Below are positions 28,676 to 51,936 of a DNA stretch of 63,555 nt, piece after piece. Location of the stretch: NCBI GenBank assembly GCA_964580435.1, contig CAZOKP010000005.1:5613-69167 (forward strand), read 5' to 3'. The stretch is from an uncultured Eubacteriales bacterium (GTDB lineage: Bacteria; Acidobacteriota; Aminicenantia; Aminicenantales; UBA8522). The translations under genes were made by a program, and so were the position numbers. Within the stretch, counting starts at the first letter, position 1. Each line of letters starts with the position of its first letter. The notes beneath the pieces are model-generated. The model had not been told where the DNA came from. It saw only the letters and a list, made by a program, of their open reading frames with translations, and did not search any database.

Positions 28676-29120
28676 TATTCTTCGGCAGGACGAAAGCGAG
28701 CCGGTCATAAAGGCGGAGGCCCTGCTTTTCTGCGCTTCCGCTTTTCAGCTCCAAGACGTACATAGCGGCAGCGCCCGGTACATAAGAGGGGCAAGGGTCG
28801 CTCGGGCAGGGCGGGACATTGGGCTCGAGGTGGACAACCCTTTTTTGGATGTCCAACCACAAGATATCAATAGAAAATCTCATGTTCTTCATCCAGAAGG
28901 AGTTGATCCCTTCCTCCTCGAAAAGAAATAGCATGCCCTGGTCGTCATTGAGTCTCTCCCGAAACATCAGCCCCTGCTGTCTTTGTTCATCAGTTATGGC
29001 GAGTTCGGCCGTTACGGCAAATCCATTTGGAAAATAGACCTTGACGAAGGCCTTTTTCCCGGCTTGGCCTGAGCAAAAGAGCAGGCACAGCGACAAAGTC
29101 AGAAGGTACCTTCTTTTCAT
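28647..29120 (-). CDS. DUF192 family protein
   Basis: QQGLMFRE, GMLFLF, FWMKNMRFSIDILWL, YVLEL. Confidence 0.88.
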   Translation of the reverse strand: MKRRYLLTLSLCLLFCSGQAGKKAFVKVYFPNGFAVTAELAITDEQRQQGLMFRERLNDDQGMLFLFEEEGINSFWMKNMRFSIDILWLDIQKRVVHLEPNVPPCPSDPCPSYVPGAAAMYVLELKSGSAEKQGLRLYDRLAFVLPKNISGPQNPRL

Positions 29121-29134
29121 TTCTCGTCTCCGTC

Positions 29135-29836
29135 TCAATGCATTGAAATCAGGGGCACAAAACGAACCGGCAGAAGCTTCTTCTTCTTGAAATGCTCCTT
29201 TTCCCGGACGACGACAACCAACTCCTGAAACCCCTCCCCGACCGGAATGATCATTCTGCCGGCAGAGCAGAGTTGTTCCCGCAATTTTTTCGGCACCGCA
29301 GGCGCCGCCGCAGTCACCATGATCGCATCATAGGGAGCGTTGTCTTGCCAGCCAAAGGTCCCATCTCCGATCTTAAAATGGATGTTAGCATACCCAAGCT
29401 TCTGCAACAGTTCCTGGGCTCTTGACGAGAGCGTGCTGATAACCTCAATGGTATAGACCTGCTTGACGATTTCGGCCAGCACGGCTGTTTGATAGCCAGA
29501 GCCTGTTCCCACCTCCAAGACCGTTTCCCCGCCCTTGAGATCGAGCGCTTCTGTCATATAGGCCACGATATATGGCTGAGAAATCGTCTGTCCTTCGCCG
29601 ATAGGAAGCGGTTCATCGGCATAAGCATAGGGCTTGAGCTCATCGGGAACGAAAAAATGCCGCGGGACCTTCCTCAGGGCCCGGAGGACCTTTTCGTCCT
29701 TGACTCCGCGGGCCTGGATCTGAAGGTTGACCATGCTCTCTCTTGGCCCGGCGAATCCGTTGTCGTTCTCTAACAAGAAAGTCCCCGAATCTATAAGGCT
29801 TGCGGGTTCATCAGTAGGCTCTGGCAAAGAAGACAA
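29135..29836 (-). CDS. pcm: Protein-L-isoaspartate O-methyltransferase (start codon uncertain, may be about 29770-29734)
   Basis: VPRHFF, GQTISQPY, VLEVGTGSGYQ, APYDAIMVTAA, VRFVPL. Confidence 0.95.
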   Translation of the reverse strand: MSSLPEPTDEPASLIDSGTFLLENDNGFAGPRESMVNLQIQARGVKDEKVLRALRKVPRHFFVPDELKPYAYADEPLPIGEGQTISQPYIVAYMTEALDLKGGETVLEVGTGSGYQTAVLAEIVKQVYTIEVISTLSSRAQELLQKLGYANIHFKIGDGTFGWQDNAPYDAIMVTAAAPAVPKKLREQLCSAGRMIIPVGEGFQELVVVVREKEHFKKKKLLPVRFVPLISMH

Positions 29837-31265
29837 GTTCCTTGGCTTCTTTCTGGCAGGAGATGCATTTTCCAGAAGGTTCTTTGTTCTCCTGGTTCAG
29901 CGGAATAACCCGGATGGTGGCCATGGTCTCTTCCTTGATCTTGTCTTCGCAGGACGCGTCCCCGCACCACCAACTCTTTAGAAAGCCTCTTTTCGACTCG
30001 ATCACTTTTTTGAACTCTTGATAATCCTCGACGGCGTGCGTGTTTTCGAGTTTAAATTTCAGAGCCTGTTCGAAGAGGGATACTTGAATATCCTTGAGTG
30101 TCTGGGGAATCCGCTGGACGAGATTGTCCAGGCCGACAAAGTCCTTTCTTTTGATGTCCCTTCTGACCAGCACAGCGCGGTTTTCCTGGATGTCTTTCGG
30201 ACCGATCTCCAGACGAAGAGGAACGCCCCGCATCTCCCACTCGGAAAATTTCCATCCGGGAGTGAATTCTTCCCTGGCATCAAGCCTGACACGAAGTCCG
30301 CTTTGCCCGAGATCTTTCTCTATCTGCAGCGCTACAGGCAGAATGGTTTCTTTCCAATTGCCGATGGATATGGGAACAATCACGACCTGCACGGGCGCGA
30401 CCTGAGGAGGGAGCCTCAACCCGGAGTCATCTCCATGCATCATCACCAAAGCCCCGATCAATCGCGTCGAGACCCCCCATGAGGTCTGCCAGACATACTG
30501 GAGGTTCTGGTCTCTGTCCTCATAGCGGATGTCAAAGACTTTGGAAAAATGCTGGCCGAGGTTATGGGATGTTCCCATCTGCAGGGCTTTCCCGTCCGAC
30601 ATCAGAGCCTCGATCGCATAGGTTTCCAAGGCACCGGCAAATTTTTGGCTCAGGGTTTTCCGTCCTTCGATCACGGGAATAGCCAGCTCCGTTTCGACAA
30701 ATTCCTTGTACAGGTAGAGGATTTTGATGGTCTCTTCCTGAGCTTCCTCAAAGGTCTCGTGAGCCGTATGTCCCTCCTGCCAAAGGAATTCGGTTGTCCT
30801 TAGGAACGGACGAGTTACTTTTTCCCAGCGAACGATGTTGGCCCACTGGTTGATCAAAACAGGCAGATCCCGCCACGACTGGATCCACTTAGAATACATC
30901 GAGCCGATAATGGCCTCGGAAGTGGGCCGGACAGCCAGCCGTTCTTCGAGTTCTTCTGTCCCTCCGTGGGTAACCCAGGCCACTTCGGGCGCAAACCCCT
31001 CCAGGTGATCCATCTCCTTCTGGAACAGGCTTTCCGGGATGAAAAGAGGGAAATAGGCATTGACATGGCCGGTGTCCTTGATCCGCTTGTCCATCAGCCG
31101 CTGGAGGTTCTCCCAAATCGAGTAGCCATAGGGACGGATGATCATCATGCCCTTCATCGGGGCATAATCCGCCATCTCCGTTTTACGGATGATCTCCACA
31201 TACCATTTGGAAAAATCCTCGCTCTTGGGAGTGATCTGCTTGACAAAACGTTCGTCTTTGATCAC
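29811..31265 (-). CDS. proS: Proline--tRNA ligase, archaeal/eukaryote-like type without insertion editing domain
   Basis: IRPYG, VRPTSE, RPFLRTTEFLWQEGHT, QTSWGVSTR, C-terminal FARAY; 484 aa. Confidence 0.96.
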   Translation of the reverse strand: MIKDERFVKQITPKSEDFSKWYVEIIRKTEMADYAPMKGMMIIRPYGYSIWENLQRLMDKRIKDTGHVNAYFPLFIPESLFQKEMDHLEGFAPEVAWVTHGGTEELEERLAVRPTSEAIIGSMYSKWIQSWRDLPVLINQWANIVRWEKVTRPFLRTTEFLWQEGHTAHETFEEAQEETIKILYLYKEFVETELAIPVIEGRKTLSQKFAGALETYAIEALMSDGKALQMGTSHNLGQHFSKVFDIRYEDRDQNLQYVWQTSWGVSTRLIGALVMMHGDDSGLRLPPQVAPVQVVIVPISIGNWKETILPVALQIEKDLGQSGLRVRLDAREEFTPGWKFSEWEMRGVPLRLEIGPKDIQENRAVLVRRDIKRKDFVGLDNLVQRIPQTLKDIQVSLFEQALKFKLENTHAVEDYQEFKKVIESKRGFLKSWWCGDASCEDKIKEETMATIRVIPLNQENKEPSGKCISCQKEAKELVFFARAY

Positions 31266-31295
31266 GGAAGTCTCCGCTCTCTTGAGTATTGGCTC

Positions 31296-31324
31296 ATTCT
31301 ATCCGCGCCCCTCATTTTTGTCAA
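31296..31324 (-). promoter_or_regulatory. Sigma-70 promoter of proS, TTGACA-N17-TAGAAT
   Basis: Near-consensus with 17-bp spacer on the minus strand. Confidence 0.75.
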
Positions 31325-31408
31325 GGAACGCTCCGACCCAACCGCGCCTCTCAAGGCTAGTTCTCCACGGTGATGGGCCAATGAAAAAGAACTAAAAATT
31401 CGCCCCAG

Positions 31409-31447
31409 GAAATTCACCCCTGATTTCATCCAAAAGGGTGATTGACC
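31409..31447 (+). promoter_or_regulatory. Copy 1 of a 39-bp shared upstream element (palindrome TCATCC-AAAA-GGGTGA abutting a TTGACC -35)
   Basis: GAAATTCACCCCTGATTTCATCCAAAAGGGTGATTGACC; 35/39 identical to 48443-48481; candidate -10 CATCGT at 31465-31470 (17-bp spacer). Confidence 0.8.
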
Positions 31448-31500
31448 CATGAAAAAGGCCGTGGCATCGTAGGCTCTACACAAAGGAAAAGGAAGCGAAT

Positions 31501-31860
31501 ATGCGATCGAAATCCTCGCTCTTTCATCTGGACAAAGCAGAGAGGAAGGGCCAGGCCTTCAACCTTCCTCTCCCGACGGTCGTAGAAGGGCAAGATGCCG
31601 CGGGAAAGACATTCCAGGAAAAAACCGTGCTCTTCTATATCAGCCATAAGGGCGCTTCATTCAATCTGCCGAACGCCATCGCTCTTGGGTCCAAGCTGAA
31701 GCTGATCATCGACCTGCCCCCAGCATTGGCCGAAGATAAGAACCTGAAGCTCGTCATCAAGGGCAAAGTGGCTCTCGTGGAGGCTAATCATTCGCACCCC
31801 TCCAGACAGCGGGTCTCTCTGAGGTTTGAAAGCAAGTATTTTATCAAAGCGGACGATTGA
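31501..31860 (+). CDS. PilZ-like domain protein (degenerate motifs)
   Basis: Paralog of 33301 (FNLPLPTVVEG...GSKLKLIIDLP); RxxxR absent, YISHKG replaces NxSxxG. Confidence 0.7.
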   Translation: MRSKSSLFHLDKAERKGQAFNLPLPTVVEGQDAAGKTFQEKTVLFYISHKGASFNLPNAIALGSKLKLIIDLPPALAEDKNLKLVIKGKVALVEANHSHPSRQRVSLRFESKYFIKADD

Positions 31861-31980
31861 GGCCCCCCTGTCCTCAGTCGAAGGAAATGGATAGGCCTCT
31901 TGCCGGCGCGTTCAAGATCATCAAGACCGCGCCCAGAGGCAGGATGAAGCCAAGTTGCCTAATCTCTGTGGATGATAAGA

Positions 31981-32451
31981 ATGTCAAAAAAATCACCCTC
32001 TGATTCATCCCCAAGAGCGATTGAACTCAGAGAAGAAGCCGACGAAAATTGGTCTGCGGAAATGAACGAAAAGGAAGAACTCTCCAAACCCTCCACCCAT
32101 GGCGCGGCCAGAGCCGGGAAGAGAGAGCGCGCCTTCGAGCTCTCTCTCCCAGCTTTGGTTACGGGCGTGGATGCCCTGGAAAACAAGTTCAGGGAAAAAA
32201 CCCAAGTCTTGTCCATAAGCTCGGAAGAGGCTACGGTCTGGCTCAAGTCAAGAGTTATGCTGGGGTCTAAGCTGGACTTGGCCCTAGACATCCCCAAGAC
32301 GCTGATCCTGGAGAATCATTTCAAGCTTCGCCTCTCCGGCACGGTCATTCTCATGCAAAATGACTCGGCACGGGCTGGCAAAAAGCAGCTTGTATCCGTG
32401 CGGCTGGACAAAAAATTCCGCCTGCTTCCGATTCCTCCCTCGATCAATTAA
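31981..32451 (+). CDS. PilZ-like domain protein (degenerate motifs)
   Basis: FELSLPALVTG...GSKLDLALDIP; SISSEE replaces NxSxxG; start could be 31972, 31981 or later. Confidence 0.65.
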   Translation: MSKKSPSDSSPRAIELREEADENWSAEMNEKEELSKPSTHGAARAGKRERAFELSLPALVTGVDALENKFREKTQVLSISSEEATVWLKSRVMLGSKLDLALDIPKTLILENHFKLRLSGTVILMQNDSARAGKKQLVSVRLDKKFRLLPIPPSIN

Positions 32452-32488
32452 TAGACATCTCTCTTCCCGTCTTTGGGCAATTATTTCC

Positions 32489-32517
32489 TTGACAAGAATT
32501 CATCGATTTAATAGAAT
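32489..32517 (+). promoter_or_regulatory. Sigma-70 promoter of the LuxR-type regulator, TTGACA-N17-TAGAAT
   Basis: Near-consensus sequence and spacing. Confidence 0.75.
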
Positions 32518-32586
32518 TTTGCCTACCGGAGAATTGATATACCTCTTTGGCTCAGGGGTTAAGAAAGACCAAAGAGGGAGAGAACT

Positions 32587-33273
32587 ATGAATAAAAAACC
32601 AATAACCACGGAAGAAAAAAGAATCAAAATCCTCATTTTCTGTCCCTCTGAAATCATCCTCTCGGGCATCCTCAGAGCTCTGGAAGTGGACGCGGGGATT
32701 GAGATCACGAATGTAGAAAAGAATACGATCGAAACGTTCATGGATTCGATCAAAAAACTCAGGCCGCACGTCATCCTCTTTGCCAACACGGAGCCCCTGC
32801 CCAATATGAGGGAAATCTGCAAGGCGATCAAGGAGATCTCCAAGCTCCAGAGCAAATCCCAGTTGCTGATCCTGGGCAGTATTCCCTCCCATGAAGAAAT
32901 CGTCGGGCTCATCAATGCTGGCGCCCGGGGATATTTCGACCTCACCGACCCGTCCAGTCAACTCTCCGAAGCGATCCGCGTTATCCACAAAGGAGAAATC
33001 TGGCTTCCCCGGGACAAGATGAGCAGCATCATGGACCGGATCATCTCCGTGGTCGGAAGAGACCTCAAGGAAAAAACTCTGGACCAGCTAACCCCCACCG
33101 AATTCCAGGTCCTCAGGCTGATCGGGCAGGGCAAGAGCAACGATGAAATCGCCGAGATCCTTTTTATCAGTAAAAACACGGTCCGGTCTCATATCAAGAG
33201 CATCTATGCCAAGCTCGATACCCACAGCCGGTTGCAGCTGGCCCTTTATGCCATTAATTCTGCCCTATTTTAA
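32587..33273 (+). CDS. LuxR/NarL-family regulator with atypical (pseudo-)receiver domain, VpsT/CsgD-like
   Basis: HTH LTPTEFQVLRLIGQGKSNDEIA...TVRSHIKSIYAKL; receiver lacks acidic pocket, phospho-Asp and Lys; linker GEIWLPR. Confidence 0.85.
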   Translation: MNKKPITTEEKRIKILIFCPSEIILSGILRALEVDAGIEITNVEKNTIETFMDSIKKLRPHVILFANTEPLPNMREICKAIKEISKLQSKSQLLILGSIPSHEEIVGLINAGARGYFDLTDPSSQLSEAIRVIHKGEIWLPRDKMSSIMDRIISVVGRDLKEKTLDQLTPTEFQVLRLIGQGKSNDEIAEILFISKNTVRSHIKSIYAKLDTHSRLQLALYAINSALF

Positions 33274-33300
33274 TGAAACCTAAAAAAATCAGAGGTTGAG

Positions 33301-33696
33301 ATGAAGAAAGTTCAAAAATCCAAAAAGAGAATTCCCCTGCCTGTGGTCCGGACCAATCGACGAAGGGAATGGCGCTTTGACTTGCCCCTCCCGACGACCA
33401 TCGAGGGGAAACTCCCCCACGGAGAACAATTTAAAGAATTCACCACGCTCGAGAATATCAGCTCCACGGGAGCCTATTTCTGCCTGGATTCCGGCGTCAT
33501 CGTCGGCTCGAAGCTCAACCTTATGATCGACCTTCCCCCGAAGCTAACGGGAGGCAAAGAGGTTAAGCTCCATCTTGGGGGAATCACCGTCCGCCTTGAA
33601 GAACCGGACAAGAAAGGCAAGAGGCAAGGCGTGGCCATCCGCTTCAGCAAAGATTTCAATTTTGTTGAATCCGAAAAAAAGAAGAAATCAAAGTAA
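33301..33696 (+). CDS. PilZ domain protein (canonical c-di-GMP motifs)
   Basis: RREWR (RxxxR) and NISSTG (NxSxxG). Confidence 0.8.
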   Translation: MKKVQKSKKRIPLPVVRTNRRREWRFDLPLPTTIEGKLPHGEQFKEFTTLENISSTGAYFCLDSGVIVGSKLNLMIDLPPKLTGGKEVKLHLGGITVRLEEPDKKGKRQGVAIRFSKDFNFVESEKKKKSK

Positions 33697-33793
33697 TTTT
33701 CCGGTTCAGACCCGTCAGCCCGGATCTCATTCCTCAAGAATTGGCGAGTCTGGGCAGCGATGACATCATTCTGAAGAGCAGGCCGACCCCATC

Positions 33794-34423
33794 ATGAGCA
33801 TTTTGACCGTCGCGCTCACGGGAGGGATTGCGACAGGCAAGTCCGTCGTCGCCCGGATGCTAAAACTGCGCGCTTGCTATATCCACTCTGCCGATCGAGT
33901 CGCCCGCGACCTGATGAAACCCCGCCTCCCGGCCTGGATAAAAATAGTCTCTCACTTCGGCCCGGAGGTCCTGAATCCCGACCAAACAATTGATCGCTCC
34001 AAACTGGGTGTCATCATCTTCTCAAATAAAAAAGAGCGGCAGTTTCTCAACAGCCTCATTCACCCTCTCGTCCTGGAAAAGAAAATGGAGGCAATTCGGC
34101 GACTGGAGAAAAAAGGCCGCTACAAGATATTTGTGTCCGAGGCGGCTTTAACCGTCGAATCCGGGTTCGCCAGTTTCTTTGATAAAGTCATCGTTGTCCG
34201 CTGCGGAAAAGAGACGCAGATCCGGAGGCTGATGGGAAGGGATAAGATCAGCCGTGCCGAAGCCCTCAAGAAAATTCGTAGCCAGATGCCGCTGGAAGAA
34301 AAGCTGAAATATGCCGATTACGTGATCGACACATCCGGCACCTTGGACGAAACAGCCAGGCAGACGGAGGCTGTCTATCAAGGTCTTCTGTCCGATTACC
34401 GCAGGAAGTCGAAAACGTCCTAG
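33794..34423 (+). CDS. coaE: Dephospho-CoA kinase
   Basis: ALTGGIATGKS, ADRVAR, LNSLIHP, RSQMP, ADYVIDTSG. Confidence 0.95.
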   Translation: MSILTVALTGGIATGKSVVARMLKLRACYIHSADRVARDLMKPRLPAWIKIVSHFGPEVLNPDQTIDRSKLGVIIFSNKKERQFLNSLIHPLVLEKKMEAIRRLEKKGRYKIFVSEAALTVESGFASFFDKVIVVRCGKETQIRRLMGRDKISRAEALKKIRSQMPLEEKLKYADYVIDTSGTLDETARQTEAVYQGLLSDYRRKSKTS

Positions 34424-35364
34424 ACCAGCAGGGCGGCGGCCAAAAGGGGAATCATGATTTCGTGATGCCCGATAAAGTAAAACCCCTTCCCTTTTTTGCC
34501 CACGGGTCTCTGGACGACGTTTTGAGACGGACGATAGTGATGGATGAAATCAAAAACCGCGGTGGAAAAATCGTCCAGAGCCTTGCCCCTGTTTCTGACG
34601 AAGGATACCGCTTTGAGGAAGACTTCGGGCAGGATGACGGCTGAGCCGACGTTGATGAAGACTCCTCCTCCTTCAAGGCTTTCCACGAGAGAGCAGAAGA
34701 GAAAAAAATCAGCCAAGGATGTTTTTCCGATGGCCTCGCCGCTTGCTTCCGGATGGAAGTGGATCGTGTCTGTCCCCACAGCCACATGGACGCTGACGGG
34801 AATGCCAAGATCGGATGAAGCCGCCAGGAGGCTCAGGTGTTTATAAGGAAAGCGCGAGGCGGCAATCATTCTGCCGACTGCATCTCCCAACCCGATCCCC
34901 TGCTTGGCGCCCGCCCTTATGGCCCTGTTTAAAAGTTCCCCGGTTTCCTTGGCCATACCAAACGTCCCGTCTTTGACCCCGGAAGCGACATCCTCTGAAG
35001 TCCGGCCGGCAAAGGCGATTTCGAAGTCATGAATGATGCCGGCTCCATTCAGGGCCAGCCCGGTGACCCAGCCCTCTCTCATCAGCTGGATGATCACCGG
35101 GCTCAAACCCACCTTGATCACATGGGCGCCCAGGGCAAAAAGGATGGCTCTTTTTTTCGACTTGGCCGCCCGGACGAGAGAAATAAATTCTTTGAAATCC
35201 CTGGCGGCCAAAATGTTGGGAAGGCTGCCAAGAAATCCCTCCAGGCCGCTCGAGGGCGAATAATCCTTGGCGAAGTCTTTGACCTCGACTTTGCTCTTTC
35301 TCGCAAGGAGTGAATGGGTCCTCAATCCCGCCGAAGAGCGCTTCTGGGATGGTTTGTTCTTCAT
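34420..35364 (-). CDS. Conserved hypothetical protein, deoxyhypusine-synthase-like fold
   Basis: LGAHVIK, LNGAGIIHD, HVAVGTD, NVGSAVILPEVF resemble DHS-like NAD-binding segments. Confidence 0.55.
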   Translation of the reverse strand: MKNKPSQKRSSAGLRTHSLLARKSKVEVKDFAKDYSPSSGLEGFLGSLPNILAARDFKEFISLVRAAKSKKRAILFALGAHVIKVGLSPVIIQLMREGWVTGLALNGAGIIHDFEIAFAGRTSEDVASGVKDGTFGMAKETGELLNRAIRAGAKQGIGLGDAVGRMIAASRFPYKHLSLLAASSDLGIPVSVHVAVGTDTIHFHPEASGEAIGKTSLADFFLFCSLVESLEGGGVFINVGSAVILPEVFLKAVSFVRNRGKALDDFSTAVFDFIHHYRPSQNVVQRPVGKKGKGFYFIGHHEIMIPLLAAALLV

Positions 35365-35459
35365 GGCTGAATCTCCCCTGTCTCGAGAATCCGAGGATGT
35401 CCTCTCCTGCGTTTGCCGGAGAGTGGGTCGACGAGGTTATGCGCGAGGATCACTCGGGT

Positions 35460-35738
35460 TTATTTTTTGACCAGGGTGTTCTTCAGGTCTTGGCCGGAAC
35501 GGAACTTGATCCGTTTTCCCTTTTCTATCTTGATCTGTCTTTTCCGGCGGATATCCCGACCGAAGCCCGTTTTCTTGTTGACGACCTTGAAGCTCCCAAA
35601 TCCCCTGATCTCGATCTTCTGATTCTTGGTCAAGGCCTCTTTTAAGGCCGCCAATATGGATTCGACGATTAACAATGATTTGGCCCTGTTGAATTCCGAA
35701 TTCTTCTCAATAGCAAGGGCAATATCATTCTTAATCAT
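35460..35738 (-). CDS. HU/IHF family DNA-binding protein
   Basis: IEIRGFGSFKV, GRDIR arm, IKFRSG. Confidence 0.92.
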   Translation of the reverse strand: MIKNDIALAIEKNSEFNRAKSLLIVESILAALKEALTKNQKIEIRGFGSFKVVNKKTGFGRDIRRKRQIKIEKGKRIKFRSGQDLKNTLVKK

Positions 35739-35811
35739 GTGAATCTCCTCTGATCCGGTCGGACGATAGATAATAATTAATGAATCACAAATAAAAAGTC
35801 AAGACGTATTA

Positions 35812-35840
35812 TTGACTTGATTTTCTCGAGTTCATATAAT
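35812..35840 (+). promoter_or_regulatory. Sigma-70 promoter TTGACT-N17-TATAAT
   Basis: Near-consensus; -10 ends 9 nt before the nfeD ATG. Confidence 0.8.
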
Positions 35841-35849
35841 GAGAACACG

Positions 35850-37127
35850 ATGAAAAAAAATTCCCTTCTTCTCTTTTGCTTTGTTCTTTTGTCGCTCCAG
35901 GTCAACGCCGCGATTCTAAAAATTACGGTCGACGCTCCCATCCATCCCATCTCTTCTGAGTACATTATCAAGAGCATCGAACACGCGGAGAAAGAAAACG
36001 CCGGTTTGATCATCCTGGTCCTGAATACGCCGGGAGGTCTGGATTCCTCGATGCGGGAGATCATCGCGAAAATTCTCGTCTCCAAAGTGCCGCTGGCCAC
36101 TTACGTGAGCCCGAGCGGCGCTCGGGCCGCCTCGGCCGGTTTTTATATCGCCATCGCTAGCGATCTTTTCGTGATGGCTCCAGGGACTAGCACGGGGGCC
36201 GCCCATCCGGTCGGGGTTTCCCTCACCGGCCAAGGAATGGACAAGACCATGGAGGAGAAAGTCACCAATGACGCGGCTGCCTATATCAAAACCCTGGCTG
36301 AAAAAAGGGGAAGGTCCGTCCAGCCGTCGGAAGACGCTGTCAGGAAAAGCCTCTCTTATACAGAAAAGGAAGCCTTCGAGCTCGGGTTGATCGACCTCGT
36401 TGCCAAGAACGAGCAGGAGATCATCGATCATTTTGACAATAAAATCATCAAGCGATTCAACGGCGAAGACCTGCTGTTGCATCTCAAGGACGAACCCATC
36501 ATTGAAATCCCGATGTCGACCAGGCAGAAGTTTCTTCTCACCATTTCCAACCCTAACCTGGCTTACATCCTGCTTATGCTCGGGCTTCTCGGCCTCTATT
36601 TTGAGTTTTCTAACCCCGGGGCCATTCTGCCCGGGGTTATGGGAGGCATCTGTCTGCTTCTGGCCATATTCTCTTTCCAGATTTTGCCCATCAATTATGT
36701 CGGGCTCCTGCTCATCCTGCTGGCTATCGGGTTGTTCATCTTGGAGGTCAAGGTCCATAGTTATGGAATTCTTTCCGTCGGAGGAATAGCGGCTATGGTC
36801 ATCGGGTCCATCATGCTTATCAATGCGCCTATTCCGGAGCTCAGGCCCAGCCTTAGATTCGTCATTCCTGTGGCCGTCAGCTTTGGGGTGGTCTTTTTGT
36901 TCCTCGTCTTCCTGGTGATCCGGGCCCACGCCAAAAAGGTCCAAACGGGGAAGGAAGGGCTCATCGGCGAAATCGGTGTCGCTGAGACCGACCTCAACCC
37001 GGAGGGGAAGGTCTTTGTCCATGGGGAGCTGTGGAATGCCGAAACGACTGGAGAGATCCCCAGGGGCAGCCGAGTCAAGGTCATCCAGGTCTTGAACGGC
37101 CTTAAGATACGCGTGCAAAAAATCTGA
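35850..37127 (+). CDS. nfeD: NfeD family membrane-bound ClpP-class serine protease
   Basis: Signal peptide, LNTPGG, ARAASAG, TSTGAAHPV, TM region, C-terminal OB fold (GKVFVHGELWNA). Confidence 0.92.
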   Translation: MKKNSLLLFCFVLLSLQVNAAILKITVDAPIHPISSEYIIKSIEHAEKENAGLIILVLNTPGGLDSSMREIIAKILVSKVPLATYVSPSGARAASAGFYIAIASDLFVMAPGTSTGAAHPVGVSLTGQGMDKTMEEKVTNDAAAYIKTLAEKRGRSVQPSEDAVRKSLSYTEKEAFELGLIDLVAKNEQEIIDHFDNKIIKRFNGEDLLLHLKDEPIIEIPMSTRQKFLLTISNPNLAYILLMLGLLGLYFEFSNPGAILPGVMGGICLLLAIFSFQILPINYVGLLLILLAIGLFILEVKVHSYGILSVGGIAAMVIGSIMLINAPIPELRPSLRFVIPVAVSFGVVFLFLVFLVIRAHAKKVQTGKEGLIGEIGVAETDLNPEGKVFVHGELWNAETTGEIPRGSRVKVIQVLNGLKIRVQKI

Positions 37128-48537: not shown

Positions 48538-51500
48538 ATGCCAATTCCTGACGACTATGTTCTGGAAGAGGAAGAACAGTCCTACCAGAGCGAGCCGGCC
48601 GCCCGAGAAAAGACGACGAAGAGGCTCGTCTCGGACCTGGCTCACGTCCAGATAGAAAAGGCCTATTTCGAAAAGCTGTTTGAAGACGCCCAGGAGGGCA
48701 TTATCATCGCAGATAGAGAAGGCCATGTCCTCAAAGTGAACGGGGAATTCAAAAGAATGTTCGGGTTTGAAAACGACGAAATCGTCGGCCAAACCATTGA
48801 TAAACTCATTGCTCCCCGGGATAACCTCAATGCCGCCGTTAACATAACCCAGCGCGTCGCCAGCGGCGAGAAAGTCTCCTTTGAAACGCTCCGCCGCAGG
48901 AAAGACGGCCGGTCCATCCAAGTTTCGGTCATCGCCTCTCCGATCATTGAGGAGGGAAAGTTACAGGCCATTTTTGGCATTTACAGGGATATTTCCGAGC
49001 AGAAAAAAATCCTGCAGGAGCTCAAGAACTCAGAGATGAGATTTCAGGATATTGCCCTCAGCTCGGCCGACTGGATCTGGGAAATCGACAGGAACGGGAG
49101 GTATATTTTCGCTTCCGGCAGAGTCACACAGATCCTCGGGTACGACCGCGAAGAAATCCTCGGCAAGACGCCGTTTGACCTGATGCCCAAAACAGAAGCG
49201 GAGCGAGTCCGACATTTCTTTCAGGAAATCATGGCCGCAAAAAAGCCGGTCGTCGACCTGGAAAACTGGAACCTCACCCGGGATGGGAAATTGGTCTGCT
49301 TGCTGACGAACGCCCTGCCAATACTCGACGAAAAAAGCGGGCTTCTGGGCTACCGCGGCATGGACAAGGACATCACGGAAAGGAAGCGCACAGAAACGCA
49401 AATCTTAAGACAGAACCTTCTTTTGGACGGCATCAACAGGCTCCTGCAAAAAGTCTTTACGAAAGAGACGGATGCTGATTTGGCCGAGTTCTGTCTCCAC
49501 CTGGCTGAAGAACTCACGGGGAGCAAGTACGGATTCATCGGCGAGATCAATGACCAGAATAACCTGGATATTATCTCCATGAGTCACTTTGCCTGGGACG
49601 CCTGCACAATTCCCAAATCCAACGCGCCCCTGCTTCTGAAGAACATGAGAATCCGAGGAATATGGAGTGAGGCCATCAAATATGGCGAGACCCAGCTCAT
49701 CAACGCCCCGGATTCGCACCCGAGCCGGGTCGGATTTCCCAAAGGACATCCCACTCTTCAAACTCTACTCTGCGCGCCTCTGAAACATGCCGGTCATATT
49801 GTCGGCGTCATAGCCCTGGCCAACAAAGAATTCGGTTATGACAGGGATGATGAAAAGGCCGTAGAAGCTCTGGCGACGGCCTTCGTCGAGGCTCTGTACC
49901 GCAAAAGAGCTGAAGCGGCGATCCAGAGAGAGACGGCCAAGCTCTCGGCGATCATCACCGGAATTGACGAGGGGGTTCTTTTTGCAGACCAGGATGACAG
50001 GATCATCGAAATTAATGATTACTTTCTCAGACTCTTGGGGAAGAATAAACCGGAGATCCTGGGCAAGACTCTCTGGGACATCTATGTCGGAAAGCCGGAG
50101 GAAGACCTGAAAAAATATGTCGAGATCTTCAAGAAGGATTCGGGGGCTCCCCCCGTCGAAATTCAGAAAACCTTGGGCGAGAAAGAAGTCATTTTCAGGA
50201 TCAAGCCCATCCGCCGCAATGATCAATACGAAGGTCTTATCCTCAACGTGGCGGATGTTTCCGAACTCGTCCGGGCGCGCATAGAGGCCCTGACCGCCAA
50301 CAGAGTCAAAAGCGAGTTCTTGGCGAATATCAGCCACGAAATCCGCACCCCGATGAACGGGATTTTGGGCATGACCGACCTGGCCCTCGACACCCAGCTG
50401 ACTCCTGAGCAGAAAGAGTACTTGGGGGGGATCAAATCCTCGGCAGAGTCCCTGTTGAGCTTGATCAACGATATCCTTGATTTTTCCAAGATTGAAGCCA
50501 AAAAGCTCGAGCTGGAATCGACCGTCTTCAGCCTGGAAGACCTTCTCTTCGAGACCTTGGCCCCTCTCTCCATCCAGGCCCATCGAAACAAGCTCGACTT
50601 GGCCTGCGAGATCTCTCCGAGTCTGGATCCCGACCTCCTCGGCGACCCCGGCCGGCTCCGTCAGATCCTGGTCAACCTTATCGGCAACGCCATCAAATTC
50701 ACAGAAAAAGGCGCCGTGGTTGTCACGGTCGCTGAATCGACCCGGTCGGAGAAGGACGTCGTCCTCCATTTTACCATCGCCGACACGGGAATCGGCATTC
50801 CTGAGGAGAAGCAGAAGATCATTTTTGATGTCTTCGCCCAGGCCGACAGCTCCATGACCCGAAAATACGGCGGCACGGGCCTCGGTCTGGCGATTTCCTC
50901 CCAGTTGGTCGACCTGCTTGGCGGCAAAATTTGGGTGGAGAGCACGGTAGGAAAAGGCAGCAAGTTCCACTTCACCGCTCGCTTCGGAGTTCTCCAAGAC
51001 TCTGACGAGAGGAGAATAGCGCAGCCAAAACTCACCTTCATGAATCTGCCTCTTTTCTTGGTGGAGGATAACGCGAGCTGCCGGCGCATCCTCAGGGAAT
51101 TGACATCCGGCTGGGGTGCGAAAGTGAAAGAGGCCGAAAGCGCCGACGAAGCGACCGTCCTGCTCGATGAAGCTAAGGAAAAGAAAAAGCCTTTTCCTCT
51201 CATCCTTTTGGATGCCAATCTCCCGGGGCACGACAGTTTCATCATCCTCGATTACATCAAGAACAATCCGGATATCGCCAAGGCCATCATCATGATGATG
51301 GGCACAACGAGCAACCGCATTGACGCCACACCCTGGCTGAAGGTCGGGATTTCTGTTCACCTGAGCAAACCCATTAAGCCGACCGAGCTCAATAATAAGA
51401 TCTCCCAGGTGCTCGGGCTGGCTGCCACGTTCCCCAAGCCTGCGGAGGCGCCTGTTCCCGTAATCGCTGAGCCTGTCGCCCCTCAGGTTGAGCAGCGCCC

Positions 51501-51936
51501 GACCACATATCGCGTTCTTATCGCGGAAGACAATTTGGTCAATCAAAAGGTCGCTATCTACATGCTTGAAAAACAAGGCCATTCCGTAACAGGAGTGATG
51601 AATGGAGAAGAAACTCTGGCTGCGCTGGAGAAGGGGAATTTTGAGCTTATTCTGATGGACCTCCAGATGCCTAAAATGGACGGTTTTAAAGCCACCCAGT
51701 TGATCCGCCAGAAAGAAAAGGAAACAGGTCTTCACCTCCCGATCATTGCCATGACCGCGCACGCCATGAAAGGAGACCGCGAAAGATGCCTGCGCGCGGG
51801 AATGGATGAATATATCTCTAAGCCCCTGAACGTCAAGCAACTCGCTGACACGATCGCCCGGGTTATGAATAATGAGGTCCAGGGCCACGAGGAACCCCCG
51901 GGAACAGCGGAGGTAGCTGGTAAAAGAAGACAATGA
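48538..51936 (+). CDS. Cytoplasmic hybrid sensor histidine kinase (PAS-PAS-GAF-PAS-HisKA-HATPase-REC-REC)
   Basis: H-box FLANISHEIRTPMNG, N/G/F boxes, receiver Asp in LILLD and LILMD; no TM segment. Confidence 0.95.
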   Translation: MPIPDDYVLEEEEQSYQSEPAAREKTTKRLVSDLAHVQIEKAYFEKLFEDAQEGIIIADREGHVLKVNGEFKRMFGFENDEIVGQTIDKLIAPRDNLNAAVNITQRVASGEKVSFETLRRRKDGRSIQVSVIASPIIEEGKLQAIFGIYRDISEQKKILQELKNSEMRFQDIALSSADWIWEIDRNGRYIFASGRVTQILGYDREEILGKTPFDLMPKTEAERVRHFFQEIMAAKKPVVDLENWNLTRDGKLVCLLTNALPILDEKSGLLGYRGMDKDITERKRTETQILRQNLLLDGINRLLQKVFTKETDADLAEFCLHLAEELTGSKYGFIGEINDQNNLDIISMSHFAWDACTIPKSNAPLLLKNMRIRGIWSEAIKYGETQLINAPDSHPSRVGFPKGHPTLQTLLCAPLKHAGHIVGVIALANKEFGYDRDDEKAVEALATAFVEALYRKRAEAAIQRETAKLSAIITGIDEGVLFADQDDRIIEINDYFLRLLGKNKPEILGKTLWDIYVGKPEEDLKKYVEIFKKDSGAPPVEIQKTLGEKEVIFRIKPIRRNDQYEGLILNVADVSELVRARIEALTANRVKSEFLANISHEIRTPMNGILGMTDLALDTQLTPEQKEYLGGIKSSAESLLSLINDILDFSKIEAKKLELESTVFSLEDLLFETLAPLSIQAHRNKLDLACEISPSLDPDLLGDPGRLRQILVNLIGNAIKFTEKGAVVVTVAESTRSEKDVVLHFTIADTGIGIPEEKQKIIFDVFAQADSSMTRKYGGTGLGLAISSQLVDLLGGKIWVESTVGKGSKFHFTARFGVLQDSDERRIAQPKLTFMNLPLFLVEDNASCRRILRELTSGWGAKVKEAESADEATVLLDEAKEKKKPFPLILLDANLPGHDSFIILDYIKNNPDIAKAIIMMMGTTSNRIDATPWLKVGISVHLSKPIKPTELNNKISQVLGLAATFPKPAEAPVPVIAEPVAPQVEQRPTTYRVLIAEDNLVNQKVAIYMLEKQGHSVTGVMNGEETLAALEKGNFELILMDLQMPKMDGFKATQLIRQKEKETGLHLPIIAMTAHAMKGDRERCLRAGMDEYISKPLNVKQLADTIARVMNNEVQGHEEPPGTAEVAGKRRQ

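Follow-up and report, generated by a model that had tools for sequence, protein, structure and literature searches.

An aspartate-less LuxR-type regulator encoded in a conserved PilZ gene cluster of Aminicenantes

The regulator gene and its PilZ neighbours

We analysed a stretch of 63,555 nucleotides (the window in the following) of contig CAZOKP010000005.1, which belongs to assembly GCA_964580435.1 of an uncultured bacterium assigned to the Aminicenantia (Acidobacteriota). The gene under study, here called luxR, encodes a transcription factor that combines a receiver-like domain with a LuxR-type helix-turn-helix (HTH), and it lies among three genes for PilZ proteins, one of which carries the motifs of a receptor for cyclic di-GMP (c-di-GMP). 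The regulator, its domains and the PilZ genes are located as follows.

32587-33273, + strand: luxR, gene of the 228-residue transcription factor with an aspartate-less receiver and a LuxR/GerE HTH (open reading frame, GerE match, full-length LiaR match)
32623-32988, + strand: receiver-like (pseudo-receiver) domain, residues 13-134, with a β1-α5 (β/α)5 fold (AlphaFold2, Foldseek)
33082-33252, + strand: LuxR/GerE-type HTH DNA-binding domain, residues 166-222 (Pfam PF00196; predicted local confidence score, pLDDT, 88-96)
31501-31860, + strand: pilZa, paralogue of the PilZ type whose c-di-GMP motifs are degenerate (Pfam PilZ, 23.2 bits, threshold 22.5; hhalign, 99.6%)
31972-32451, + strand: pilZb, PilZ paralogue with degenerate c-di-GMP motifs (hhalign to PilZc, 99.5% probability; conserved synteny)
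33301-33696, + strand: pilZc, canonical single-domain PilZ protein, likely co-transcribed with luxR (Pfam PilZ, 26.0 bits, threshold 22.5)

The only domain that Pfam recognised in the regulator was GerE/LuxR (PF00196; residues 166-222, 1.1e-20, 73.5 bits against a cut-off of 23.5), and Response_reg was not detected by this search. Nevertheless, phmmer aligned the protein end to end with canonical NarL-type proteins, namely LiaR/VraR 5hev (1.6e-23), DevR (1.2e-14) and NarL (7.4e-14). Two AlphaFold2 models were obtained with a mean pLDDT of 71 and 80 (in the better model 80-90 for the receiver and 88-96 for the HTH), and both had a regular β1-α5 receiver fold followed by a helix starting at R142. 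The predicted receiver could be superposed on the receivers of DesR and RcsB with TM values of 0.82-0.84 and root-mean-square deviations of 2.3-3.1 Å (Foldseek, predicted models). The two features expected of the NarL/FixJ superfamily, an N-terminal CheY-like (β/α)5 receiver and a C-terminal GerE/LuxR HTH, are thus both present; we regard the fold and the HTH as established and assign the regulator, as an aspartate-less (pseudo-receiver) protein, to the NarL/LuxR transcription factor family. Its best full-length matches are LiaR/VraR (5hev also in Foldseek, E 8e-14), NarL, RcsB and DesR, with which it has in common the domain order and the α5 consensus, reading 'L.EAIR.I..GE' in the regulator. 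It differs from these proteins in the loss of the five phosphorylation residues, in having no adjacent gene for a partner kinase, and in a linker that is invariant instead of variable.

The neighbourhood was compared in 80 loci, one from each of 80 species-representative genomes, of which almost all are labelled Aminicenantes or Acidobacteriota. The gene order proS (minus strand) / pilZa pilZb luxR pilZc coaE was kept wherever the contig was long enough, that is, in essentially all 80 species loci. In 79 of 79 loci, 10-29 nt separated the luxR stop codon from the pilZc start (27 nt in the window), and no terminator was predicted between these two genes. The products of pilZa and pilZc, two of the three small flanking proteins, passed the Pfam PilZ threshold, and profile-profile comparison with hhalign showed that PilZa, PilZb and PilZc are paralogues (99.5-99.7% probability). 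The motifs RxxxR and [D/N]xSxxG occurred in register in all 80 PilZc proteins, in one of 76 PilZa proteins and in none of 76 PilZb proteins, so that the pair of motifs that marks a PilZ domain as a c-di-GMP receptor is a property of PilZc and not of PilZa or PilZb. By its motifs, PilZc is a bona fide c-di-GMP receptor, and the regulator is universally coupled to it and to two degenerate paralogues; both the conserved operon and the intact motifs of PilZc can be taken as established. Since three PilZ paralogues flank the regulator in universally conserved synteny, a connection of the regulator with c-di-GMP is likely. This evidence from gene context is different from that used in a preliminary description of the locus, which had relied on a WLPR motif in the linker, and the conserved operon with PilZ genes is a new element of the system.

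Adjacent to the module and convergent with coaE is a gene for a GSU2086-family protein at 34420-35364 (minus strand; NCBIfam, 412 bits). The protein is weakly similar to deoxyhypusine synthase, and its gene is kept beside the module in many loci.

The receiver domain and the most conserved segment

Residue conservation in the regulator was followed in a set of 81 sequences, consisting of the window and the 80 loci described above, each from a different species-representative genome. The positions that are required for phosphorylation in canonical receivers are occupied as follows.

32641-32646, + strand: C19-P20 in place of the Asp-Asp pair after β1 (Cys in 81/81 and Pro in 81/81 species)
32782-32784, + strand: A66 instead of the phospho-Asp at the β3 end (Ala in 80/81, Ser in 1/81, never Asp or Glu)
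32875-32877, + strand: G97 instead of the conserved Thr/Ser at the β4 end (Gly in 81/81)
32941-32943, + strand: L119 instead of the conserved Lys at the β5 end (Leu in 78/81, Phe in 3/81)

In the alignment with LiaR/VraR 5hev, IFCP of the regulator stood on VDD with C19 and P20 at the acidic pair, ILFAN on ILMDL with A66 at the phospho-Asp position, LILGS on IIVTS with G97 at the Thr position, and GYFDL on GYLLK with L119 at the Lys position. The same five replacements were seen again in a multiple alignment of the regulator with its canonical relatives. The preliminary description had read IFCP, HVILFAN and GYFDL in place of the acidic pair, the phospho-Asp and the Lys, and this reading proved correct in every detail, both in the LiaR alignment and across the 81 species. 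It had added that the protein probably cannot be phosphorylated, and this is supported by the fact that all five catalytic positions are replaced and that the replacements are fixed in these species. A phosphorylatable Asp at the end of β3 would have spoken against this view, but the alignment has A66 at this place, and strand β3 (residues 62-66) contains no acidic residue at all. The regulator thus deviates from the signature of a phosphorylatable response regulator (acidic pair, phospho-Asp, Thr/Ser, Lys) at all five positions, and it corresponds to what is called a pseudo-receiver (PsR) or aspartate-less receiver (ALR), i.e. a receiver fold without the phospho-accepting Asp. We regard the dead active site as established; judged from these alignments, the degeneracy is clearly real and under selection, and phosphorylation cannot switch the regulator.

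The members of the ALR/PsR class, such as RitR, CsgD and the RcsB-like SecR, resemble the regulator in having a phospho-acceptor-free receiver fold fused to a DNA-binding domain. The regulator differs from them in forming a separate lineage limited to Aminicenantes, and we know of no characterised member of the class that is encoded in an operon with PilZ genes. Such proteins are expected to be under the control of a ligand, a partner, the redox state or their own abundance (PMC4395418, PMC12632262, PMC13199381).

Redox control of the regulator would mean that the invariant C19, situated in the former metal-binding acidic pocket, is oxidised or modified and in this way controls dimerisation, as in RitR-type aspartate-less regulators. 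Cysteine is indeed found at the first acidic Asp position in 81 of 81 species, and Cys-based redox control of aspartate-less regulators has been documented (PMC5965902; PMC12632262). Nevertheless, we consider a thiol switch to be highly improbable here. The only other Cys of the protein, C78, is aligned to the buried hydrophobic position in 'DG[IL]E', the sequence with which α3 begins in canonical receivers, and is therefore probably structural, and the surroundings of the regulator gene showed no thioredoxin or peroxidase context. Apart from such a switch, C19 (32641-32643) may serve as a reactive residue or as a metal ligand, in a pocket from which the binding of Mg2+ and phosphate has been lost.

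More than 1100 homologues of the regulator were found, and the best 120 listed were all at least 80% identical to it and came from metagenome-assembled genomes of Aminicenantes/Acidobacteriota. Clustering at 50% gave essentially one full-length cluster, after which identity fell to about 35%, the level of generic NarL-type proteins. Across about 80 species the regulator was at least 78% identical. As far as can be told from sequence, the regulator is a new, lineage-specific family that is restricted to Aminicenantes and belongs to the known class of pseudo-receiver LuxR regulators. Within the protein, one segment exceeded all others in conservation.

32989-33081, + strand: α5/α6 junction together with the α6 helix and the linker, residues 135-165 (mean column identity 0.989)

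Over the 81 species, the mean column identity of this segment (0.989) was higher than that of the HTH (0.978) and that of the receiver (0.837). The identity at third codon positions was equal among the receiver, the HTH and the 135-165 segment (0.73-0.75), which shows that the constraint on residues 135-165 acts on the protein; an embedded nucleotide element as the cause of the linker conservation was rejected for the same reason. Linkers of NarL-type proteins are normally variable, and the 135-165 segment is therefore very likely a functional surface, which would fit a surface for a partner, for a dimer or for a ligand.

The α5/α6 junction in comparison with VpsT

The preliminary description had drawn attention to a WLPR motif in this segment and had compared it to the c-di-GMP-binding motif of VpsT. 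Two features are relevant to this comparison.

33001-33012, + strand: W139-L140-P141-R142 at the α5/α6 junction, aligned to W131-L-T-R134 of VpsT (BLASTP; invariant in 81/81 species)
32968-32970, + strand: E128, aligned to the c-di-GMP contact K120 of VpsT (BLASTP register; Glu in 80/81, Asp in 1/81)

VpsT of Vibrio cholerae (PDB 3KLN/3KLO) is similar to the regulator in that it possesses an atypical, phosphorylation-independent receiver, a GerE HTH and a W-L-x-R sequence at the α5/α6 junction, after the Arg of which a helix is predicted in the regulator. To our knowledge, VpsT is not encoded beside PilZ genes. Translation and BLASTP bore out the coordinates of WLPR and its positional match: the two proteins were 34% identical over 117 residues, and W139-L-P-R142 fell exactly on W131-L-T-R134 of VpsT, whose sequence was confirmed against PDB 3kln. 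In VpsT, c-di-GMP is contacted by K120 and by W131, L132, T133 and R134, that is, by K120 plus W[F/L/M][T/S]R (PMC7288161, review). Three of these five contacts are kept in the regulator. W, L and R match, the third position of the motif (T133 in VpsT) is Pro in 81 of 81 species, and the Lys on α5 is replaced by Glu at E128 in 80 of 81, with R131 and K135 located nearby in the sequence.

If the regulator sensed c-di-GMP as VpsT does, its dimer would bind intercalated c-di-GMP at the base of α6 via W139 and R142, and this would stabilise a DNA-binding oligomer. The PilZ proteins would then work alongside the regulator or at a later step. The exact and invariant match of WLPR to the VpsT sequence is in line with this possibility, as is a c-di-GMP context that is independently present in the form of the PilZ synteny and the PilZc motifs. 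Moreover, the predicted helix begins at R142, as α6 of VpsT does (ending at residue 160 in model 1 and at residue 149 in model 2, with a pLDDT of 46-69, i.e. at low to moderate confidence), and a hydrophobic stripe that can be read from the sequence, made up of M145, I148, M149, I152, I153, V155 and V156 could support helix-helix dimerisation.

Outside the family, the closest relatives of the regulator are W-h-x-R proteins, a point in favour of direct sensing. Among 83 representatives of related full-length NarL-type clusters, 43 (52%) had W and 28 (34%) had R at the motif columns, with both in 26, so that each is a background residue there. The residue between the W and R columns was most often Glu, and the strict VpsT motif occurred in a single one of the 83 representatives. 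The W..R pair was present in 25 of 42 representatives with a non-canonical receiver, compared to 1 of 41 with a canonical one (Fisher p = 6e-9), which would favour direct sensing. This association turned out not to be general, however. A profile search with the W..R proteins gave more than 4000 matches, the best 120 of which were almost all canonical receivers (DD, D, T, K) reading K..GE[LM]W[VI]ER, and 116 of these 120 carried W..R. We therefore dropped W..R as a marker of dead receivers. The canonical receivers of this very large clade resemble VpsT at K120, W131 and R134 more closely than the Aminicenantes regulator does.

Several single proteins from this comparison deserve mention. PDB 2qsj is a canonical receiver that reads GEIFLPR at the same junction. 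One K..GE[LM]W[VI]ER member adjoins genes for polysaccharide chain length and export (Wzz/GNVR, Poly_export), and another adjoins a FHA-GAF-HD_5 (HD-GYP-type) protein. The 356-residue metagenomic protein P0271 looks like a partial tandem duplication or an assembly chimera of a WVER-type response regulator, as its sequence begins anew with 'LKPDIVLLD' midway through the HTH.

The resemblance to VpsT is also limited beyond the motif. The phmmer match of VpsT to the regulator covered residues 114-225 only (9.4e-13), leaving the N-terminal two thirds of the receiver unaligned, and VpsT keeps an Asp at the end of β3, which the regulator does not. In two Foldseek runs VpsT ranked 32nd and 15th, behind LiaR, VraR, ChrA, RcsB, EvgA and NarL, and the NCBIfam model for CsgD gave 60 bits against a cut-off of 250. 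The regulator is thus no closer to VpsT/CsgD than to other NarL-type proteins by phmmer, NCBIfam or Foldseek, and the VpsT-like character given to it in the preliminary description did not hold in these checks, in which LiaR, VraR, RcsB and NarL ranked above VpsT (phmmer, Foldseek).

Since the entire 135-165 segment is invariant, the invariance of WLPR carries no specific signal for nucleotide binding. The near-motif does not appear distinctive and we give it small weight as evidence, because only three of five contacts are kept, W and R are ordinary residues at these columns, the association with dead receivers fails to generalise, and the protein is not specifically VpsT-like by sequence or fold. 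Furthermore, the VpsT homologue BrpT binds c-di-GMP weakly, with a reported dissociation constant of 135 µM (PMC10519070). What stands of the proposed sensor is the exact position of WLPR; the Glu at K120, the Pro at Thr/Ser and the wide distribution of W-h-x-R count against it. Direct c-di-GMP binding in the manner of VpsT is rather disfavoured on these grounds, and we regard it as unlikely to be how the regulator works.

A broader form of this idea would be that W139 and R142 bind c-di-GMP despite the Pro and the Glu, and that the VpsT mechanism is the tip of a very large GE-x-W-h-x-R class of NarL-type proteins. We find this doubtful, somewhat more so than direct sensing as such. If it were true, the VpsT mechanism would not be a speciality of Vibrio, thousands of canonical K..GE[LM]W[VI]ER response regulators would integrate phosphorylation and c-di-GMP, and the Aminicenantes regulator together with the co-transcribed PilZ protein would be a two-receptor c-di-GMP switch conserved across the lineage. 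In practical terms, W-h-x-R is common in canonical NarL-type regulators, and the four-residue VpsT motif alone is therefore unfit for annotating c-di-GMP receptors.

Promoters, signal input and meaning of the module

The upstream regions of luxR and pilZa contain two conserved elements.

32489-32517, + strand: sigma-70-type promoter of luxR itself, TTGACA-17-TAGAAT (11/12 consensus positions; -35 hexamer at least 95% conserved in 79 loci)
31414-31447, + strand: operator-like element 5' of pilZa, the inverted repeat TCACCC-N16-GGGTGA (31414-31441) with an overlapping TTGACC hexamer that resembles a -35 element (conservation of 95% or more in 75 loci)

The promoter of proS (31324-31296, minus strand) also has 11 of 12 sigma-70 consensus positions, with the same hexamers and spacing (TTGACA-17-TAGAAT), and shares with the luxR promoter the extended -35 region TTCCTTGACAARAAT. 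No other sequence was found to be shared between the luxR promoter and another site. Two copies of TTCCTTGACAARAAT at the same stringency were obtained in 8 of 100 shuffles, and the coincidence is not significant. We therefore rejected the reading of this sequence as a shared regulatory box; it is essentially the extended -35 region, and together with TTGACA-17-TAGAAT it may represent the strong-promoter consensus of the lineage.

The inverted repeat upstream of pilZa occurs once in the window and is a candidate operator, possibly for the luxR regulator; nothing ties this element to c-di-GMP turnover. The proS-pilZa intergenic region additionally contains a 21-nt direct repeat, GGTGATKGRCCMATGAAAAAG, at 31369-31389 and 31437-31457 (68 nt apart; chance alone would give 0.01 copies). 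In 73 of 75 loci the proximal GGTGAY is kept at -61 to -82, and the distal copy of GGTGATKGRCCMATGAAAAAG is found in some of the loci only. No further copies of the direct repeat or of the inverted repeat were found elsewhere in the window.

In the luxR leader, a hairpin at 32542-32578 consists of a perfect 9-bp stem, CCTCTTTGG-N19-CCAAAGAGG, whose 3' arm overlaps the ribosome-binding site. A riboswitch or another RNA element at this place was rejected, as most of the 79 related loci lack the hairpin. With E-values up to 1, Rfam gave only two sub-threshold chance matches in the region 29000-36000 and none for the hairpin.

It had also been suggested that the regulator, as a possible c-di-GMP sensor, would close a feedback loop through a shared box. 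A motif search of the 63.5-kb window found no GG[DE]EF or HD-GYP motif, and EAL-like strings in unrelated open reading frames only; Pfam detected no GGDEF, EAL or HD-GYP domain in the ten largest open reading frames of the window. An open reading frame with a GGDEF motif was present within 6 kb in only 1 of 80 loci. With no GGDEF, EAL or HD-GYP protein found in the window and no significance of the sequence shared by the promoters, the suggested loop is unsupported.

Among the ten largest open reading frames of the window there is one two-component sensor, a hybrid histidine kinase (48538-51936, plus strand; PAS-PAS-GAF-HisKA-HATPase_c-REC-REC) located 15 kb downstream of the regulator, with no evident link to it.

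The promoter of luxR could be all that sets the activity of the regulator. The pseudo-receiver would then be a fixed dimerisation scaffold, and an orphan, constitutively active regulator would be controlled by its amount, without any ligand or partner. Such a scaffold would be consistent with the strong and conserved sigma-70 promoter of the gene and with its location between the housekeeping genes proS and coaE, and many pseudo-receiver regulators indeed dimerise without phosphorylation (PMC12632262). However, it would leave unexplained why a canonical PilZ gene always follows at a distance of 10-29 nt, why two more PilZ paralogues are present, and why conservation is higher in the linker than in the receiver and the HTH, and we think that it is quite improbable.

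We favour the view that the aspartate-less LuxR factor provides the DNA-binding output for a c-di-GMP module built on PilZ proteins, pilZa-pilZb-luxR-pilZc, and that PilZc docks on it; we estimate the probability of this model at roughly 50%. The c-di-GMP signal would enter mainly through the canonical PilZc, encoded 10-29 nt downstream of luxR in the same transcript. PilZc, possibly also PilZa or PilZb, would dock on the regulator and alter its dimerisation or its DNA binding as c-di-GMP levels change. The docking surface would most likely be the nearly invariant α5/α6 junction with the linker (residues 135-165), and PilZa and PilZb may serve as nucleotide-independent competitors or adaptors. 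The physical interaction of the PilZ proteins with the regulator, the direction of its effect and the target genes are postulates of the model.

A precedent is known from Pseudomonas aeruginosa, where the single-domain PilZ adaptor TssZ binds HinK, a regulator of the LuxR superfamily with a LuxR-type HTH, and blocks its binding to DNA; this interaction responds to c-di-GMP (PMC10912698). The correspondence between the two systems is incomplete, since we only infer the interaction of the Aminicenantes regulator with PilZ proteins, and this tempers the docking model, as do several other points. HinK is described as a LasR-type protein and not as a pseudo-receiver, and the TssZ-HinK pair came from a yeast two-hybrid screen and not from gene adjacency, the two genes not being adjacent. 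Gene adjacency, as observed here, shows functional coupling but not mechanism, and PilZc could itself be controlled by the regulator, or could be an effector in its own right that is simply expressed together with it. Finally, since the searches of the window revealed neither a diguanylate cyclase nor a phosphodiesterase, and a GGDEF-motif open reading frame lies nearby in only 1 of 80 loci, c-di-GMP metabolism in this organism is deduced solely from the intact PilZc.

Aminicenantes, which have not been cultured, occur widely in sediments and in the subsurface, and their gene regulation is almost entirely unknown. The module is probably a core regulatory switch of this lineage, because it stands beside proS and coaE in every species examined and its regulator is so well conserved (at least 78% identity across about 80 species). 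How pseudo-receivers are controlled is still described as an open question in recent reviews (PMC12632262). With its four short genes, the module offers a clean and small test case for pseudo-receiver control, and it is suited for asking whether single-domain PilZ adaptors can dock on a dead receiver or on its linker.

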